DNA from: Bacilli bacterium
GTDB taxonomy: Bacteria; Bacillota_I; Bacilli_A; RF39; UBA660
Assembly: GCA_017887425.1 (NCBI GenBank)
Contig: JAGHHZ010000020.1
Span: 1 to 62,007, forward strand
Reading direction: 5' to 3'
DNA: 62,007 nt
Notes under the pieces: model-generated
The model's input: only the letters and a program-made list of their open reading frames with translations
Told to the model about the DNA's origin: nothing
Database searches by the model: none
Position numbers and translations under genes: made by a program
Shown: positions 5,034 to 43,177 of the stretch, one piece after another
Numbering within the stretch: the first letter of the stretch is position 1
Layout: every line of letters begins with the position of its first letter

Positions 5034-5088
5034 GTTGTAAAATTTTTCTTTTTTTGATATAATTCTTATAGTAAAGAAGGTGTTCAAT

Positions 5089-6438
5089 TTGAATAAGAAA
5101 GGGTTTGCAGTTAGTGGTATAATTTATTCAATTTTAATCTTATTTTTAATCTTAATTTTTAGCATATTAAGTATTTTAGGTGGTCGTAAATTAATATTAG
5201 ATAAATTAAAAAACGATGTTATGAACGAATTAAATGATGAAGTTTTTGAACTTGCTTATCGTGATCGAAGTGGAGCTAATAGGCCAGAATTATTAAGTAA
5301 TATGATACCGATTAGATATGATGGAACTAATTGGGTATATGCTGATATAAATGAAGAATGGTATAATTATGAAACACAAGAATGGGCTAATGCAGTTGTT
5401 TTAAATAGTGGAGTAGTCAAGAATGTTGGCGATACAATAACTGAAAGTGATATAGCTTTATGGTATGTGTGGATTCCAAGATATAAATATCAATTGTTTA
5501 ATGCAAATAATGAAGGTGTTGCTGAGCAGTTAATTAATATCGAATTTGAAAGGGGAACAGCAAGTACTGGAACAGTAAGCTGTACTGATGCCATTAATCA
5601 ATCTGATGAAAATGGTAATTTGATTAGTGAAACGTGTATTAATGCCACAAATGGTAATTGGTATACCCACCCCGCCTTTACTTTTGGTGATGAAGAAATA
5701 ACTGGTTTTTGGATAGGAAAATTTGAAGTAAGTGGTACTACTGATAATATTACTATAAAGCCAAATGTAAGTAGTTTAAGAAGTACAACAGTGTCTCAAT
5801 TCTTTACAGCAATCCAAAATATGAAAACTACATATGGCTTAAGTGGCGATAGTCATATGATGAAGAATATGGAATGGGGAGCAGTAGCATATTTAAAACA
5901 AAGTAAATATGGATTAGGAGAAACAGATATCGGAATAAATAATAATAGTTCATATATAACAGGATGTGGAGCAACAGCAGGAAGCTCTAGTAGTGATACA
6001 TGTGATGCTTATAATACTACCAATGGCATGTTAGCAAGTACAACGGGAAATATATATGGAGTATATGATATGAGTGGTGGAGCATGGGAACACGTGATGG
6101 GAAACATAGTCAATAGTAGTGGAGCTTTCTATGCGAGTAGTTCAGGATTTAGTAGTGCTCCAGATGCAAAATACTATGATGCCTATACATATGGAACAGA
6201 TTATGAAGATCATGGTCGAGGAAAGTTAGGGGATGCGACAAAGGAGACATTAGCGACATTTGGAAGTTATAATGGTGGTTGGTATAGCGATTCCACTAGC
6301 TTCGTCTACTCTAGTAGCTTTTGGTTCAGCCGGGGCGGCTACCACAACAGGGGTTCCGGTGCCGGTGTGTTCATCTTCGACAGCAGCAATGGTGGAGTCT
6401 TCAGCACCAACGGTTCGCGTGCAGTCCTCGTCCCATAA
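5089..6438 (+). CDS. Pilin-like (class III signal, no Glu5) surface protein with a C-terminal CLec/FGE-like domain; probable DGR target
   Basis: TTG start after GAAGGTG; NKKG|FAVSG plus hydrophobic helix; GVYDMSGGAWEHV; ends RGG...GAGVF...GSRAVLVP. Confidence 0.8.
   Translation: MNKKGFAVSGIIYSILILFLILIFSILSILGGRKLILDKLKNDVMNELNDEVFELAYRDRSGANRPELLSNMIPIRYDGTNWVYADINEEWYNYETQEWANAVVLNSGVVKNVGDTITESDIALWYVWIPRYKYQLFNANNEGVAEQLINIEFERGTASTGTVSCTDAINQSDENGNLISETCINATNGNWYTHPAFTFGDEEITGFWIGKFEVSGTTDNITIKPNVSSLRSTTVSQFFTAIQNMKTTYGLSGDSHMMKNMEWGAVAYLKQSKYGLGETDIGINNNSSYITGCGATAGSSSSDTCDAYNTTNGMLASTTGNIYGVYDMSGGAWEHVMGNIVNSSGAFYASSSGFSSAPDAKYYDAYTYGTDYEDHGRGKLGDATKETLATFGSYNGGWYSDSTSFVYSSSFWFSRGGYHNRGSGAGVFIFDSSNGGVFSTNGSRAVLVP
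6286..6435 (+). repeat. Putative DGR variable repeat (VR)
   Basis: 78/135 GC over 6301-6435; 30 of 50 codons end in C; variable-looking codons are NNC (AGC, TAC, CAC, GAC, ATC, ACC, AAC); located at the CLec 3' end. Confidence 0.75.
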
Positions 6439-6447
6439 TTATAGATT

Positions 6448-6480
6448 AAACTGATAAAATAATTGTTTATCAGTTTTTTT
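6448..6480 (+). terminator. Hairpin directly after the putative VR (terminator and/or DGR homing hairpin)
   Basis: AAACTGATAAA-ATAATTG-TTTATCAGTTT followed by T-run. Confidence 0.7.
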
Positions 6481-6509
6481 TAATTGCATAAAATATATTA
6501 GGTGATGTT

Positions 6510-10642: not shown

Positions 10643-11512
10643 ATGAAAAAAGGATTTACATTAGCCGAATTATTAGGGGTTATTATTATATTAGGAGTTA
10701 TCGCTTTAATAACTCTTCCTATCGTAAATAGGAATATAAGAGAAAGTCAAGAACAATTATATGCTACCCAATTAGAAGAAATTGAATTAGCTGCTGAAAA
10801 ATGGGCCTATAAAAATGTCGATTTATTACCTATAAACGAAGGTGAAACCATAACAGTAACTTTACTAACTTTAAAAGAATCCGGTGACTTGCCATTAGAT
10901 GTAAGAGATCCTAGAACAGAAGAATTAATGCCTAATGATATGGTTGTCACAATTGAATTTACTAACAACACTTATACATTTACGGTTGATGCTGAAAGTG
11001 GTAGTAATGTAACTGACGAAGTCGATGAAAATTCTCCAATTATTATTTTAAATGGCAGTCATATTGAATTTGTCGAAATAAATAGTACTTATAATGAACA
11101 AGGTGCCAAGGCAAAAGATAGAAATGGTAATGTTTTAAACGACATAAATGTTACTTATCAAGAAAATGGAACAGAAATTCCTCATGTCGATACATCAAAA
11201 TTCACAACATATACAGCTATATATAGTGTGACAAACGATGGTTATACATCACACATTACTAGAACGATAATTGTAAGAGATACAACAGCTCCTGATTTAG
11301 TTATTCCTGATAATATCGATTTAACTGCTAGTCAATTAATTAATTTTGATGTAATGGAAGGTGTTTCAGTTACTGATAATAGTGGAGAAACTATCAATGT
11401 TACAACTAGTGGTTTTGATACAACGCCAAGTGATAAAATAGTTGAATACACAGCTTGTGATAGTCGTAACAATTGTGTTACTAAAAGAAGATTAATTAAA
11501 ATTGTTGAGTAA
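10643..11512 (+). CDS. Type IV pilin-like protein with Ig-like (DUF5011-type) domains
   Basis: KKG|FTLAELLGVIIILG prepilin motif with Glu5; PIIILNG...GAKAKD and DTTAP Ig-repeat motifs. Confidence 0.88.
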   Translation: MKKGFTLAELLGVIIILGVIALITLPIVNRNIRESQEQLYATQLEEIELAAEKWAYKNVDLLPINEGETITVTLLTLKESGDLPLDVRDPRTEELMPNDMVVTIEFTNNTYTFTVDAESGSNVTDEVDENSPIIILNGSHIEFVEINSTYNEQGAKAKDRNGNVLNDINVTYQENGTEIPHVDTSKFTTYTAIYSVTNDGYTSHITRTIIVRDTTAPDLVIPDNIDLTASQLINFDVMEGVSVTDNSGETINVTTSGFDTTPSDKIVEYTACDSRNNCVTKRRLIKIVE

Positions 11513-11918: not shown

Positions 11919-11966
11919 TTTGGTCTTTTTCTTTTGCAAAACACATATAATTACATGGGTGATTAT

Positions 11967-12746
11967 ATGAATTTTGATATAGGCGATTTAGTCACAAGAA
12001 AATCATACAATAATGATACTGTTTTTGTTATAACTGATATTATCGATAATATTTATTATTTAAAAGGTTTAAATGTTAGATTATATGCTGATAGTGACAA
12101 AGAAGACTTAGTTAAATTTGATAGTGTCGATGAAGAAGATAAAGAATTCGAAGAAAGAGTAAAACCAGATATCAATTTAAATAGAGATGACTATTTTTAT
12201 TTACCTGGCAAAATATTACATATAGATAGTGATCTAGATTATTTAAATCGTTGTTTAAATTATTATAAAGAAGCTAATATTTGGGCAGTAGGAATAAACG
12301 AAAATGAAGAAAATATTCCATTATACATAAGAGATTGGTTAGAAGAATATAATCCTAATATTATTGTTATAACTGGTCATGATGCTTATTATAAAAAGAA
12401 GGGTACACAAGATAATATCAATGCTTATAAGAATAGCGCTAATTTTGTTAAAGCAATTCAAGAAGCTAGAAAATTTGAAAAGAACCATGATAAATTAATT
12501 ATTATTGCTGGAGCTTGTCAATCAGATTACGAAGAGTTAATTAAAGCAGGAGCTAACTTTGCTAGTTCTCCAAAAAGAGTAAATATTCATGCTTTGGATC
12601 CGGCTATAATTGCTACTAAAATGAGTTTATCTGATGTTAATCATGATATAGATTTAAAAGGAATTATTGAAAAAACAAAATATGGAAAAAATGGTATTGG
12701 GGGAGTTATTACTAAAGGAACAATGTATACGGGGTATCCAAGATGA
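11967..12746 (+). CDS. yabG: Sporulation peptidase YabG
   Basis: VTRKSYNND, LPGKILHIDSD, ITGHD, AGACQS, GANFASSP. Confidence 0.92.
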   Translation: MNFDIGDLVTRKSYNNDTVFVITDIIDNIYYLKGLNVRLYADSDKEDLVKFDSVDEEDKEFEERVKPDINLNRDDYFYLPGKILHIDSDLDYLNRCLNYYKEANIWAVGINENEENIPLYIRDWLEEYNPNIIVITGHDAYYKKKGTQDNINAYKNSANFVKAIQEARKFEKNHDKLIIIAGACQSDYEELIKAGANFASSPKRVNIHALDPAIIATKMSLSDVNHDIDLKGIIEKTKYGKNGIGGVITKGTMYTGYPR

Positions 12747-12952
12747 TTGGAGAAGTTAGAAGTAAATTAAATGATTATGTCGGTCAAAAGGTAACAATTA
12801 AATATAATTTAGGAAGAAATAAATATGAAAAATATCACGTCACCATCAAAGAATTATATGAAAATGTTTTTTTAGTTGAATTAAATAATAATGCGAAAAA
12901 GTCTTTCACTTATACTGATATAATAACTAAAACAATAAAAATCGATTATTAG
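12743..12952 (+). CDS. veg: Veg family protein
   Basis: GQKV...NLGRNK...SFTYTDIIT; follows yabG as in Bacillus. Confidence 0.85.
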   Translation: MIGEVRSKLNDYVGQKVTIKYNLGRNKYEKYHVTIKELYENVFLVELNNNAKKSFTYTDIITKTIKIDY

Positions 12953-14055: not shown

Positions 14056-14141
14056 AACAATAAAAATCGATTATTAAACTATTGCATTTTTAAAAAAAAT
14101 AGTTTATACTTAAATTGTAATACTGAAGGGAGAGGTTTTTA

Positions 14142-14399
14142 ATGGAAATTACATCAGTTACAGTTCGTAAAGAAGAAAAAGAAAATTCAAGAATGAGAGG
14201 AAAAGCATCAGTTCTAATTGATGATTGCTTTGCAATTCATGATATTAGAATTATCGAAGGTAATGATGGTTTATTCATAGCTATGCCTAGCCGTCAAAAA
14301 GCTAATGGGGAATATCGTGATATAGCTCATCCAATTAACCAAGAAACTCGTAAGATGTTCCAAGATAAAATTTTAGAAGCTTACAAAAATGCTGAATAA
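14142..14399 (+). CDS. spoVG: Septation regulator SpoVG
   Basis: IHDIRIIEGNDGLFIAMPS, YRDIAHPIN; TTGCAT-N17-TATACT upstream. Confidence 0.95.
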   Translation: MEITSVTVRKEEKENSRMRGKASVLIDDCFAIHDIRIIEGNDGLFIAMPSRQKANGEYRDIAHPINQETRKMFQDKILEAYKNAE

Positions 14400-14434
14400 A
14401 GCATTTTTTTTGATATAATATTGGTGGTGATTTG

Positions 14435-15256
14435 ATGAAAACATTAATTATACCTTCTAATTTAAAGCAAGTTAAATTAAATTGTGATGGGGTTATTATT
14501 GGTATTAAAGGATTAAGTATCAATATGCCTACCTATTTTGAATTAGAGGATTTAAAAAATATCAACAAAGAAATATTTGTCTGTTTAAATAAAAACATGC
14601 ATAATGAAGATATCGCTTTATTAAAAGATACTTTAATTAAGCTAAATGACTATAATATTAAAGGTGTAATATTTTATGATTTAGCTATTCCTAATTTAGC
14701 TAAAAAGTTAAATCTAAACTATGATTTAGTTTGGAGTCAGGAACATATGACAAATAACTATTACACTATTAATTTTTGGTATGAACAAGGAATTAAATAT
14801 ACTTGGGTATCTAACGATATAACATTAAGAGAAATGCAAGAAATAAAAGAAAATACTAAAGCTAAATTAATGGTAACTTTATTTGGTTATCTACCTATTT
14901 TCGCATCTCAAAGACATTTGGTTAAAAATTATTTAAAAACATTCAATTTAAGTGATAATTCTAAAATAAATTATATGGAAAAAGAAGGGAAAACATATCC
15001 TTTAATTGATGATGAGCATACCGTTGTCTATACTGATTTTGTTTTAAATGGTTTAAAAGAAAAATTAATTTTAAACTATGACTATATCGTTTTAAATAGT
15101 TTTTTAATTGAAGATGATAAGTTTAAGAAAGTTTTAAATATATTTAATAGCGTTAATGAAGAAAATATTGATAAAAAAGAAGAAGAATTAAATGAATTAT
15201 TTGATAACTTAAAGAAAGGCTTTTTCTATAATGAAACTGTTTATAAGGTGAAGTAA
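14435..15256 (+). CDS. Peptidase U32 family protein, short subunit (TrhP1/YrrN-like)
   Basis: GVIFYD and WSQEHM motifs; overlaps the second U32 gene. Confidence 0.75.
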   Translation: MKTLIIPSNLKQVKLNCDGVIIGIKGLSINMPTYFELEDLKNINKEIFVCLNKNMHNEDIALLKDTLIKLNDYNIKGVIFYDLAIPNLAKKLNLNYDLVWSQEHMTNNYYTINFWYEQGIKYTWVSNDITLREMQEIKENTKAKLMVTLFGYLPIFASQRHLVKNYLKTFNLSDNSKINYMEKEGKTYPLIDDEHTVVYTDFVLNGLKEKLILNYDYIVLNSFLIEDDKFKKVLNIFNSVNEENIDKKEEELNELFDNLKKGFFYNETVYKVK

Positions 15257-40418: not shown

Positions 40419-42392
40419 TTGAACAAACCTAGATATTTGTTGCCATTTATTTATGTTTATCGAATGGTTCGTTTTTTGTTGCTAGTTATCATTAAAGTAT
40501 TTAAGTATATCAATGTTGGCTTTTTTATAACATTGTTTACTTTAATAGATGTCGTTATTACTGCAATATATTATTTTGTAAAGTTTGTTTTAATAGGATT
40601 TTTATGCCTATCAGTTTTTGTCTATAAAACACTTAGGTATACTCTTATTGGATTTGTAGTTATTTCAAGAATCTTATATCGTTTTATTAGATACGTTGCT
40701 TTTGGAATAGCTTTCCCATTTGTTTTAATTGCAAGAGCATTTATCAAACTAAATGAAATAAACGAGAAGATGTTGGCTAAACAACAATTAGAACAAGAAA
40801 AAAGAGCTGCCGCTCGTGAACGCAATAGACAGATTAGAGAAGAAAATAGAAAACGTTTAGAAGAGCTAAAAATTAAAGAAAAAGAACGAGAAGAACAAAG
40901 AAAACAAGAAAGAAGAGAAGCTCGCGAAAAAGAAAAACAGAGAACCAAAGCAGATATTTATATTAATGAAAATGTCACTTTAGAGAAAAAAGGGTTTAAA
41001 GATTATATAAATGATGCTTTCTTAGCAATTGGTCAAATACCATCAAAAATTAAAAATTTATTTACTAATAATCGTTTTGTTAAAAATGCTAAAAATAAAA
41101 AGGATATTAACCGACAAGCTTTATTACTTGATTTTGAAGGTGCCGACGCTGAAAAAAGTGAAGAAAAAATCATGTATAAATATGTTGCTAAAAATCCAGA
41201 AGGGAAGATAATTAAAGGATATTTCCCAGCTTACTCAAAAGTTGAAGTTCATTCATTCTTATTAAGTGAAGGTAATGAAGTATATAGTATCGAAACTAAT
41301 AAATGGATTCAAAGAATATATGGTAATCCAAATAGAATGAATAAAGCTAAAATTAAAACAAGAGATTTGATTTTCTTCTGTACTCAGTTATCGACTTATG
41401 TTAAGGCTGGTATCACTTTAGTAGAATCATTAAAAATACTATCTCATCAATTTAAAAATAAAACTTATTCGAGAATTTTTAGAACGATGATTTATGATTT
41501 ATCGATGGGAGATAATTTCTCAACTGCGATGGATAAACAGGGTGATGCTTTCCCACGACTATTGATCAATATGGTTAAAACATCAGAAATGACCGGTGAA
41601 TTACCAGAAGTTTTAGATAATATGGCAGACTATTTTACTGAAACTGATAAGACAAGAAGACAAATGATTACAGCAATGACTTATCCAACAATTATTTTCA
41701 TTTTTGCAATTGCTGCAGTTATATTCATAATGGTATATGTCGTTCCACAATTCGTTCGAATTTATGAGGGAATTGATGGTGCAACTATTCCAGGTATAAC
41801 AATATTTGTTATGAACTTAAGTGCCTTTTTACAACATAATTATTTATATTTAATTATTGGTGTTGCTTTATTTATTTTAGTATTTGTTTACTTATATCAA
41901 AATATCAAAGCCTTTAAAACCTTTGTTCAATGGACTGTTATGCATATGCCAGTATTTGGGAAAGTCGTTATATATAATGAAGTTACAATGTTTACCAAAA
42001 CTTTTGCTTCATTGTTAGCCCATAACGTTTTCATTACTGATAGTATGGAAATATTGAATAAGATGACTAATAATGAAATATATAAAATGCTTATTCTTGA
42101 TACGATAACAAATTTAGCAAAAGGTGAAAGAATTTCCTTAGCATTTAAAGATCATTGGGCATTCCCAGTACCTGCCTATGAAATGATTACAACTGGTGAA
42201 AGAACTGGTCAATTAGCCGAAATGATGGAAAAAGTATCTGCATATTATCAAGAATTACACCGTAACGCTGTTACGAGAATTAAAACATTCGTCGAACCAT
42301 TTATGATTTTATTCTTAACTTTTGTAGTTGGCGGTATTGTTTTATCAATCGTTATTCCAATGTTTAGCTACTACGGTTCAATCAATGTTTAA
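40419..42392 (+). CDS. pilC: Type IV pilus platform protein (PilC/T2SS-F family) with long N-terminal extension
   Basis: QLSTYVKAGITLVESL, SEMTGEL, AMTYP, GERTGQL, FVEP. Confidence 0.9.
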   Translation: MNKPRYLLPFIYVYRMVRFLLLVIIKVFKYINVGFFITLFTLIDVVITAIYYFVKFVLIGFLCLSVFVYKTLRYTLIGFVVISRILYRFIRYVAFGIAFPFVLIARAFIKLNEINEKMLAKQQLEQEKRAAARERNRQIREENRKRLEELKIKEKEREEQRKQERREAREKEKQRTKADIYINENVTLEKKGFKDYINDAFLAIGQIPSKIKNLFTNNRFVKNAKNKKDINRQALLLDFEGADAEKSEEKIMYKYVAKNPEGKIIKGYFPAYSKVEVHSFLLSEGNEVYSIETNKWIQRIYGNPNRMNKAKIKTRDLIFFCTQLSTYVKAGITLVESLKILSHQFKNKTYSRIFRTMIYDLSMGDNFSTAMDKQGDAFPRLLINMVKTSEMTGELPEVLDNMADYFTETDKTRRQMITAMTYPTIIFIFAIAAVIFIMVYVVPQFVRIYEGIDGATIPGITIFVMNLSAFLQHNYLYLIIGVALFILVFVYLYQNIKAFKTFVQWTVMHMPVFGKVVIYNEVTMFTKTFASLLAHNVFITDSMEILNKMTNNEIYKMLILDTITNLAKGERISLAFKDHWAFPVPAYEMITTGERTGQLAEMMEKVSAYYQELHRNAVTRIKTFVEPFMILFLTFVVGGIVLSIVIPMFSYYGSINV

Positions 42393-42403
42393 GGGGGATA
42401 ACA

Positions 42404-43177
42404 ATGGAATTAAGTATTATAATCGGACTATTTGTATTAGGAACCATTCTTGGTTCCTTCTACAATGTTGTTGCTTATCGTTTACCGAAAGGCGAATCAA
42501 TTATATATCCTGCTAGCCATTGTCCAAATTGTAATCATAAATTAAGACCATGGGAGTTAATTCCCATTTTTTCTTACTTATTACAAAGAGGAAAATGTTC
42601 TAAGTGTAAACAAAAAATATCTATTTTTTATCCAATATCAGAAATATTATGTGGATTGTTATTTGTTTTTTGTTATTTATCTTTTGGGATATCTTTAGAT
42701 TTAATTATCGCTTTAACTTTTACATCGTTATTAATAATTGTTATTTTAAGCGACTATTATTATATGATTATCGAAGATAGTGTTTTAATTATCTTTAGTA
42801 TATTATTAATAATTGAAATTTATTTTATTCATGGTTTTAATTATTTATTAGATCATTTATCTTCTGCTATAATTGCTTTTTTAATTATGTATCTATTAAA
42901 ATTAGCTGGTGACTTTATTTTTAAAAGAGAATCAATGGGTGGCGGTGATATAAAATTAATGGCTGTTTTTGGCCTTATGATTGGTTGGAAAATGTCAATA
43001 ATAACGATATTTTTATCAGCTTTTATCGCTTTGCCAGTTTCGATTTTTATTTTAAAAACCAATAAAAATCATGAAATACCTTACGGTCCATTTCTAAGTA
43101 TTGCTGCTTTAATTATCTATTTTACGCATTTAGATATGGGTACAATTATTAATTTTTTAACCAGTTTGTATTTATAA
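42404..43177 (+). CDS. pilD: Prepilin peptidase (A24) with Zn-binding N-terminal domain
   Basis: GSFYNVVAYRLP, CPNC...CSKC, MGGGDIKL, IPYGPFL. Confidence 0.93.
   Translation: MELSIIIGLFVLGTILGSFYNVVAYRLPKGESIIYPASHCPNCNHKLRPWELIPIFSYLLQRGKCSKCKQKISIFYPISEILCGLLFVFCYLSFGISLDLIIALTFTSLLIIVILSDYYYMIIEDSVLIIFSILLIIEIYFIHGFNYLLDHLSSAIIAFLIMYLLKLAGDFIFKRESMGGGDIKLMAVFGLMIGWKMSIITIFLSAFIALPVSIFILKTNKNHEIPYGPFLSIAALIIYFTHLDMGTIINFLTSLYL

Follow-up and report, generated by a model that had tools for sequence, protein, structure and literature searches.

Diversity-generating retroelements (DGRs) are, to our knowledge, the only prokaryotic system for the targeted hypermutation of proteins. Published DGR targets include phage tail fibres and lipoproteins. 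Here we describe a DGR target in a 62-kb stretch of DNA (the window, at its full length), which is contig C32 of a Bacilli bacterium genome assembly (G000; 1.24 Mb in 36 contigs, ~26% GC, 87.6% complete). The target gene lies near the beginning of the window and encodes an N-terminal class-III-like signal with a helix, followed by a conserved module of ~390 residues with a DGR variable region (VR) at its end. On alignment with TR2, a template repeat (TR) from a conspecific strain, the VR of the window is a TR2-type DGR product, and this is the central result of the analysis. In the labels used below, G000 is the genome of the window itself and C-numbers are its contigs, G003–G024 and similar labels are genomes of the genus, L-numbers are fetched DNA loci, and P-numbers are protein clusters.

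The closest described counterparts are the DGRs that contain MSL, including the Legionella DGR (PMC5758913). They share with the system described here a TR, a small MutS-domain-I protein (MSL), Avd and a DGR-type reverse transcriptase (RT), as well as a target with a C-type lectin (CLec) fold, a C-terminal VR mutagenized at adenines, a hairpin after the VR and an ability to act on targets that are not adjacent to the cassette. In contrast to these DGRs, the targets here have type IV prepilin-type N-termini, the host has a 26% GC genome of ~1.2 Mb, so that the VR forms a GC island, two templates that are 84% identical appear to partition the paralogues, and the copy in the window is without a template. 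The DGR of Treponema denticola has seven non-adjacent targets (Wu et al. 2018, PMC5758913). It is similar in that one cassette serves scattered paralogous surface proteins of the formylglycine-generating enzyme (FGE)/CLec fold in trans. TvpA, a target of the T. denticola DGR, carries a lipoprotein signal, whereas the target described here has a class-III-like signal, and this remote copy matches no template in its own genome. In Bacteroides, DGRs diversify type V pilus adhesins (bioRxiv 10.1101/2024.11.15.621889), which is again a case of gut bacteria with a DGR acting on an adhesive pilus component. However, the pilus class is different, as the carrier described here fits the PilD/PilC/PilB type IV pathway, and the Bacteroides text makes no mention of type IV pili or prepilins. 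Modular type IV pilins such as PilB of Streptococcus sanguinis (PMC8179133) also have a bulky binding module behind a class III signal and an α1 helix, and a tip location has been proposed for them. The protein in the window differs from these pilins in that no small pilin head is evident, Glu5 is missing, and the module is, or was, reprogrammed by a retroelement; modular type IV pilins are not known to carry a module of this retroelement-programmed kind. A survey places a "GspG-type pilin" domain among the rare VR-bearing domains (PMC11661182), and pili are not mentioned by Roux et al. 2021. In the open literature that was searched, targets headed by a type IV pilin appear only as this rare domain listing, and searches for DGRs together with type IV pilins or prepilins yielded no relevant paper. 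The mechanism, the cassette type and the fold are already known, while the type IV-like carrier and the two-template partition are little described.

The cognate template was first predicted from the scaffold of NNC codons that is shared by the VRs of different strains, and was then searched for. L167 was found to contain, at 758-895, a sequence with 96% identity to the predicted TR2. It lies upstream of genes for MSL (MutS_I), bAvd and an RVT_1-type RT, and this TR2-MSL-bAvd-RT cassette comes from a conspecific strain. TR2 reads AACGCCAACTTCGTCAAC...GTCCTC. The VR of the window differed from TR2 at 20 of the 41 template adenines, but at only 8 of the 97 other positions (Fisher p = 3e-7). The assignment of this VR to a TR2-type DGR follows from the adenine specificity of its mismatches to a template beside a DGR RT. 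The initial annotation had interpreted the 3′ end of the gene as a DGR variable region, and the adenine-biased mismatches to TR2, together with the variation of strains in NNC codons described below, bear this out. In the orthologue P0012 at locus L044, the mismatches to TR2 were confined to template adenines (16/41, compared to 0/97 at other bases). Five of the eight non-adenine differences were private to the VR of the window (positions 6295, 6297, 6320, 6351, and 6398), and four of these were GC-to-AT changes. The remaining three were common to the VRs of other strains, which suggests that they point to an allele of TR2. At L044, the RT gene is convergent on the target gene and lies directly 3′ of the VR; its product matches cluster P0132 at 100% identity, and P0132 in turn shares 85% identity with the RT encoded on contig C27 of the genome of the window. 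L044 and L167 were identical across 801 nt of the RT gene and a further 26 nt beyond it.

The open reading frame (ORF) of the target spans 5080-6438 on the plus strand, and its likely start is the TTG at 5089, 6 nt 3′ of GAAGGTG (Table 1). Gene calls in public assemblies have the identical start and the 449-residue product. The reading frame stays open across a CGG codon, which specifies the nearly invariant Arg of WFxRGG, and a +1 frameshift at CGG was therefore rejected for this gene. The G+C count at 6301-6435 was 78 of 135 nt (A=22, C=39, G=39, T=35), compared to a GC fraction of 0.267 for the window, and a scan with 135-nt segments reached 70 or more G+C nowhere else in the 62 kb. Codons ending in C make up 30 of the last 50 codons but 29 of the other 399, and 42 of the last 50 end in C or T. 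The adenine fraction is 0.17 in these 50 codons and 0.36 in the rest of the gene. This GC content of 58%, the NNC codons and the depletion of adenine arise because the template is GC-rich and random bases are placed opposite its adenines, which are mostly in AAC codons. The GC-rich end encodes the peptide ...GVYDMSGGAWEHV... and SDSTSFVYSSSFWFSRGGYHNRGSGAGVFIFDSSNGGVFSTNGSRAVLVP*. VR and TR2 agree through GTCCTC and then split, with the VR continuing as GTCCCATAA and the TR as TTTCAGAC; the same GTCCTC boundary recurs in the TR/VR pairs of C27. The GC-rich 3′ end (6412-6438) resembles an initiation of mutagenic homing (IMH) element. The hairpin that follows the stop codon (AAACTGATAAA-ATAATTG-TTTATCAGTTT, then a T-run) is AT-rich and folds with -7.6 kcal/mol (z = -4.1 against shuffles). 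It resembles a terminator, and it may also have the role of a post-VR hairpin. All of these sequence statements of the initial annotation, namely the GC rise, the C-ending codons, the hairpin after the stop, the peptide and the N-terminus MNKKG/FAVSG, were reproduced.

Table 1. Positions of the target gene, its parts and the type IV pilus genes in the window
Feature	Position	Strand	Description	Basis
Target gene	5089..6438	+	449 aa plus stop, TTG start	ORF list, translation
Leader MNKKG + hydrophobic tract FAVSGIIYSILILFLILIFSIL	5089..5232	+	class-III-like signal without Glu5; helix 5-48	
Conserved C-terminal module (~390 aa)	5263..6438	+	from ...SGANRPELL; common to paralogues on C31 and C26/C27	
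Variable region (VR)	6292..6429	+	46 codons	gap-free alignment to TR2 (L167:758-895)
IMH-like element, GC-rich VR 3′ end	6412..6438	+	...TCGCGTGCAGTCCTC/GTCCCATAA	VR/TR2 alignment
Hairpin	6448..6484	+	perfect 11-bp stem, 7-nt loop, T-run; stem-loop itself 6448-6476	
PilC-type platform protein	40419..42392	+	657 aa, two T2SSF domains	
PilD prepilin peptidase	42404..43177	+	A24_N_bact plus Peptidase_A24; only one found in genome	

More than 7,900 proteins are homologous to the 449-residue product at E <= 1e-10. Approximately 18 of these are orthologues of equal length with 82-91% identity; they hardly differ in the first 100 residues, and in the last 50 they show variation at fixed positions. 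For the comparison of diversity, the DNA of eight orthologues from other metagenomes was fetched. These loci were syntenic (GGDEF, BrkB, target, MurF) wherever the contig showed both neighbours. Nucleotide diversity among nine syntenic strain orthologues was ~0.02 at the 5′ end of the gene and rose to 0.19-0.30 across the last ~200 coding nt. The flank just 3′ of the stop had a diversity of 0.42, with two alternative downstream arrangements among the strains. The differences between strains fall in NNC codons on one scaffold that is common to all, including the window, and ~13 VR alleles were counted among 19 close orthologues. By this pattern, the locus was diversified within the species. A copy resembling the template and a DGR RT, the absence of which would have spoken against a DGR, were found, and the hypervariability among strains was confined to the VR.

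In the strains with cassette-type flanks, a second type of post-VR hairpin was observed (ATTTCAAAC-NNNN-GTTTGAAAT; 9-bp stem, 4-nt loop), at L039:4351-4375, L044:2339-2362 and L007:248-272. Its loops read GAAT, GCTT, AGGT, TAAT or GAGA, and its stem shows a compensatory change (ATTTC...GAAAT versus AATTC...GAATT), which suggests that the structure of this hairpin is conserved.

Next, we compared the C-terminal module with known folds. The AlphaFold2 model (from an alignment of 85 sequences) had a predicted local distance difference test score (pLDDT) of 82 and a predicted template modelling score (pTM) of 0.81, and consisted of a helix at residues 5-48 followed by a β-rich module. The best Foldseek matches in the PDB were TaqVP (5VF4; E 2e-7) and Mtd (1YU0; E 4e-4), followed by the FGE-like PvdO (E 5e-3). 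A sequence profile also matched 5VF4 (E 0.0016), and the Pfam FGE-sulfatase family gave a weak match below its cut-off (E 0.01, 16 bits). The modelled fold is thus that of a CLec/FGE-type DGR variable protein, in agreement with the CLec/FGE-like fold that had been expected to carry the VR. TaqVP and Mtd resemble the protein of the window in their CLec-type fold and in the location of their variable residues at the C-terminus. However, they share only 13-18% identity with it, with template modelling scores of 0.3-0.4 over the whole chain, and neither has a pilin-like helix. Within the same genome, the module is present in paralogues with 79% identity on C31 and 68% identity on C26 (tblastn, residues 60-452). 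The expected paralogous prepilin genes with the same 3′ end therefore exist, as the prepilin-headed proteins on C31 and C26/C27 share the module.

The N-terminus of the target, MNKKG/FAVSGIIYSILILFLILIF, has Gly instead of Glu at position +5, and this residue is Gly, Thr or Ser in all orthologues of the genus. G5 and F6 are nearly invariant among the 85 homologues, and the orthologues of the genus retain the motif K[KR]G[FI]A[VI]S down to 40% identity. Class III signals are described as a hydrophilic leader ending in Gly or Ala, followed by ~21 hydrophobic residues within an α1 helix of ~50 residues (PMC8179133), and the target fits this description with its MNKKG/FAVSGIIYSILILFLILIFSIL sequence and its modelled helix 5-48. 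The genome also encodes a type IV pilus pathway. PilD and PilC are encoded in the window, as the initial annotation had stated, a PilB-type T2SSE protein is encoded at C31:10577-11713, and 19 ORFs with a prepilin N-methylation motif occur in the 1.24 Mb of G000, many of them with 370-1,085 residues. The T2SSF domains of PilC begin at about residue 320, leaving an N-terminal extension of ~300 residues, and an ORF of 289 residues at 10643-11512 of the window combines N_methyl with a bacterial Ig-like domain. Some minor or tip pilins also lack Glu5. It is thus plausible, from the N-terminal motif and the model, that the protein is a type IV minor pilin or tip adhesin. PilD would then cleave it between Gly and Phe, and a type IV filament would display the lectin module, possibly at its tip, as Glu5 is missing. 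The lectin module would also bind a ligand.

Several observations count against the pilin assignment. The target protein matched neither Pfam N_methyl (PF07963, E up to 1) nor TIGR02532 (NCBIfam, E up to 0.1), and NCBIfam gave no match for it at all. The paralogues on C31 and C26 do match N_methyl, whereas the target is not among the 19 genomic N_methyl ORFs. Glu5 is absent, and the model shows no pilin head domain, so that the pilin assignment is based on the motif and the model. The same observations would be expected if the N-terminus were a plain signal-anchor and the protein a membrane-tethered surface lectin, with neither PilD cleavage nor a filament; the helix of the model indeed runs straight into the lectin module without the β-sheet head of a pilin. 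We consider this alternative somewhat unlikely, and it would leave the DGR origin of the VR unaffected. The leader ends with Gly followed by Phe in a context conserved throughout the genus, and in the paralogues the same module is borne by canonical prepilins with GFTL(V/I)E. Furthermore, the genome has the N_methyl ORFs along with PilB, PilC and PilD, and a lectin tethered to the membrane beneath the cell wall would presumably reach few ligands. The proposed minor-pilin adhesin is therefore plausible from the Gly-ended leader, the helix, the conserved K[KR]G[FI]A and the GFTL(V/I)E paralogues, but was not borne out by any N_methyl or TIGR02532 match or by a globular pilin head.

No RT or TR was found within the 62-kb window, which agrees with the initial annotation, where the gene had been regarded as a target remote from both. 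Three ORFs with an RVT_1 domain were found in G000, on C27, C34, and C15. The RTs of C27 (IGNYTSQ/YMDD) and C34 (IGNMTSQ/YMDD) have the DGR motif [ILV]GxxxSQ together with YMDD. The cassette on C27 lies on the minus strand and comprises a TR (2532-2677), MSL, bAvd (76 bits; MutS_I, 44 bits) and the RT. This TR-MSL-bAvd-RT order corresponds to Architecture D as defined in Wu et al. 2018 (PMC5758913). The cis target of C27 is a canonical prepilin of 1,085 residues (...AFTLIELLGV...) with Ig-like repeats, convergent on the cassette. The 3′ end of its gene spans the break between C26 and C27, where G000:C26:7749-8066 overlaps C27:1-318 (= L007:1-318) by 318 nt. The two overlapping sequences differ at 19 positions, all inside the VR and all at template adenines. 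The contig break is caused by two VR alleles of this prepilin, and the adenine-only differences show that the C27 DGR was active in the sampled population. The C26 allele contains an in-frame TGA derived from an AGA codon of the template, and the C27 template can therefore generate nonsense alleles. The paralogue on C31 (529 residues, MKKGFTLVELL, Pfam N_methyl) also has a VR of this type, with mismatches to TR_C27 at 17/39 adenines and 2/99 other bases.

The template on C27 is not the cognate template of the target in the window. Against TR_C27 (C27:2532-2677), the VR of the window had 19 adenine mismatches but also mismatches at 19 of 99 non-adenine positions, compared to 1-2 non-adenine mismatches for the VRs of C27, C26, and C31, and TR_C27 is thus homologous only. 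TR_C27 and TR2 are 84% identical. From these comparisons, the two templates appear to partition the paralogous targets, with the C27 cassette serving the two canonical-prepilin paralogues. A search for a template-like copy in the whole genome, as had been proposed, thus revealed DGR RTs and one TR-like copy, but the cognate TR2 was found in a conspecific strain only. When 30 genomes of the genus were searched at the DNA level, no match exceeded 80% across a part of the query, and scans of Joint Genome Institute (JGI) metagenome contigs and of viral contigs gave no match. An 18-mer of the inferred template matched more than 120 unrelated GC-rich genomes among genome contigs and was uninformative. 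A weak match at C3:247-412 was rejected as a template, as it is part of a decayed, AT-rich C-terminal gene remnant.

We next considered the present state of the VR in this genome. Neither TR2 nor an RT of the P0132 type was found in the 1.24 Mb of G000, although at 87.6% completeness this does not prove their absence. The site 3′ of the target, which holds the cassette in L044, is empty in the window, where the target is followed by the terminator and MurF. In L167, the TR2 cassette lies upstream of a gene for a prepilin of 123 residues and pgk; the region L167:593-757 marks a presence/absence polymorphism relative to G000:C20:10918-10999. There, C20 has no cassette but an 82-nt gap-to-pilin spacer, with a flank 96% identical to L167. 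The VR allele of the window was identical at the DNA level in four other samples (L168-L171; samples ERZ15810798, ERZ2641769, ERZ27280790 and ERZ28619532), although the flanks carry single-nucleotide polymorphisms (SNPs) there, and it was also identical in cluster members with differences elsewhere in the protein. Within the lineage of the window, the VR was thus invariant among the consensus contigs compared across samples. Because TR2 is missing from the assembly, both cassette sites are empty and the allele is identical across samples, we regard the VR as most likely orphaned and static. It is probably a recently written allele that is now taking ordinary, AT-biased point mutations. The claim of the initial annotation that the region is being diversified in this genome at present was not supported, given the non-cognate C27 template, the empty sites and the DNA-identical allele in four samples, and in this lineage the locus looks frozen rather than hypervariable.

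Taken together, we consider it likely that the gene encodes a pilin-like helix joined to a CLec/FGE module whose VR was written from TR2 and is now orphaned and static. According to this reading, the TR2-MSL-bAvd-RT cassette would make cDNA from TR2 with random bases opposite the template adenines, mostly in AAC codons, and this cDNA would replace the VR by mutagenic retrohoming. Loss of TR2 would leave the VR unrewritten, and ordinary AT-biased point mutations would accumulate. Several points weigh against this part of the reading. A TR2 cassette might be located in the portion of the genome that is not assembled, and consensus contigs cannot reveal VR variants of low frequency. L044 (2.8x coverage) and L167 overlap inside the cassette only, and the order target-cassette-pilin-pgk in the strain of L044/L167 could reflect two copies of the cassette or a mis-join. 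Some of the five private non-adenine differences could reflect an unseen TR2 allele and not decay. Finally, DGR activity at the target locus is slow in general, because in other strains, too, divergent backgrounds have VR alleles in common, such as those of P0004, P0007, and P0011.

The VR could still be an active remote target, with homing rare or episodic, either through a TR2 cassette in the unassembled ~12% of the genome or through the RT and Avd of C27 acting with TR2 RNA. The GC content of the VR, which at 0.58 still equals that of the freshly written orthologue in G016, the intact IMH-like end and post-VR hairpin, and the slow activity at the locus would all fit such a target, as would the occurrence of the same hairpin context beside a fresh VR in G016. 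We nevertheless regard continued activity as improbable. It is opposed by the lack of TR2 and of a TR2-type RT in 1.24 Mb, by the empty state of both sites that hold TR2 cassette sequence in other strains, by the fact that five assemblies of different samples have an identical VR but SNPs in its flanks, and by the five private non-adenine changes, which are mostly GC-to-AT.

Recombination does act at the 3′ end of the gene, as decayed C-terminal remnants occur in L039, L045 and contig C3, but the idea that the GC-rich tail was horizontally acquired, gene-converted or a product of compositional chance is contradicted by the adenine-specific mismatches against a template beside a DGR RT, by the restriction of strain differences to NNC codons and by the DGR variable protein fold, and we give it almost no credence. 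The remnants in L039 (4424-4759) and L045 (~2250-2580), which are two conspecific strains, are decayed C-terminal pieces of the target gene with 111 residues and lie between the current VR with its hairpin and the old terminator before MurF; this arrangement looks like the insertion of a new 3′ end in front of the old one. The remnant on C3 (L003:150-410) is promoterless and AT-rich, codes for no more than the C-terminal ~85 residues of a protein of the family (...HERGKLGDATKETL...STRAVLTP*) and adjoins the 3′ end of a sigma-factor-like gene.

Across the genus, BrkB was found upstream of the target in 8 of the 10 orthologues examined, and by this gene order the target is an old syntenic orthologue. 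The GC fraction of the last 135 nt of the orthologues ranged from 0.58 in G000 and G016 down to 0.32-0.36, the level of the gene body, in G008, G014, and G024. Such a spread would be expected if the orthologues included both newly written VRs and VRs that have decayed completely. The VR of the sister-species orthologue G016, which looks freshly written, had mismatches to TR_C27 at 22/39 adenines and 3/99 other bases and thus fits a TR_C27-type scaffold. Therefore, one locus can be served by different templates. The orthologue in G016 has the same terminator hairpin as that at 6448-6484 of the window, and because it combines this hairpin with a TR_C27-type VR, the hairpin context of the window is compatible with homing. 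Some genomes of the genus of ~1.1 Mb contain up to ~20 copies of the lectin-module family. By tblastn, 16-23 matches to the family were observed in G003, G005, G021, and G024 (genomes of 1.0-1.1 Mb) and 0-1 match in others.

A wider interpretation, which we put forward tentatively and rate somewhat short of an even chance, is that type IV filaments serve as the display platform for a DGR-programmed lectin repertoire in this genus. At least two mutually exclusive templates, 84% identical, would each have their own subset of paralogues, different templates would capture one locus in sister species, and loci would change between a hypervariable and a frozen state as cassettes are gained or lost. 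The orthologue without Glu5 beside BrkB would then be the tip or initiator subunit, with its specificity set by the template that wrote last. What DGRs diversify shows which interactions face the fastest selection, and in the present case a gut lineage that has never been cultured and has a reduced genome commits many genes, along with at least two DGRs, to pilin-headed targets. Within the family, the copy in the window is itself ordinary and apparently inactive. The locus as a whole, however, provides a natural series, in which the cassette is adjacent, the cassette is deleted, the VR is rewritten by another template (in the sister species), or the VR has decayed to the background GC. This series could calibrate the rate at which orphaned VRs erode and the specificity between templates and targets.

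Finally, two further retroelements were observed in this genome. The RT on C15 (C15:13315-13902, L006, an ORF of 347 residues) was rejected as a DGR RT, as it has YADD and QGACTSP and lacks the DGR motif. The repeats on this contig (10517-10649 versus 12646-12786, and a tandem at 11973-12735) showed no adenine bias, and the C15 RT is probably of another class of retroelement. In contrast, C34:11025-14742 (partly L008) is a second complete DGR, with an AAC-rich TR at approximately C34:12873-12958 and the RT at 14110-14742. Its VRs are located at approximately 11925-12024 and 12625-12705, inside an ORF of 588 residues that begins with an N_methyl motif, and a related VR-like sequence is present at C12:5987-6956. 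The VR type of C34 differs from that of the window, and its carrier is again a prepilin.

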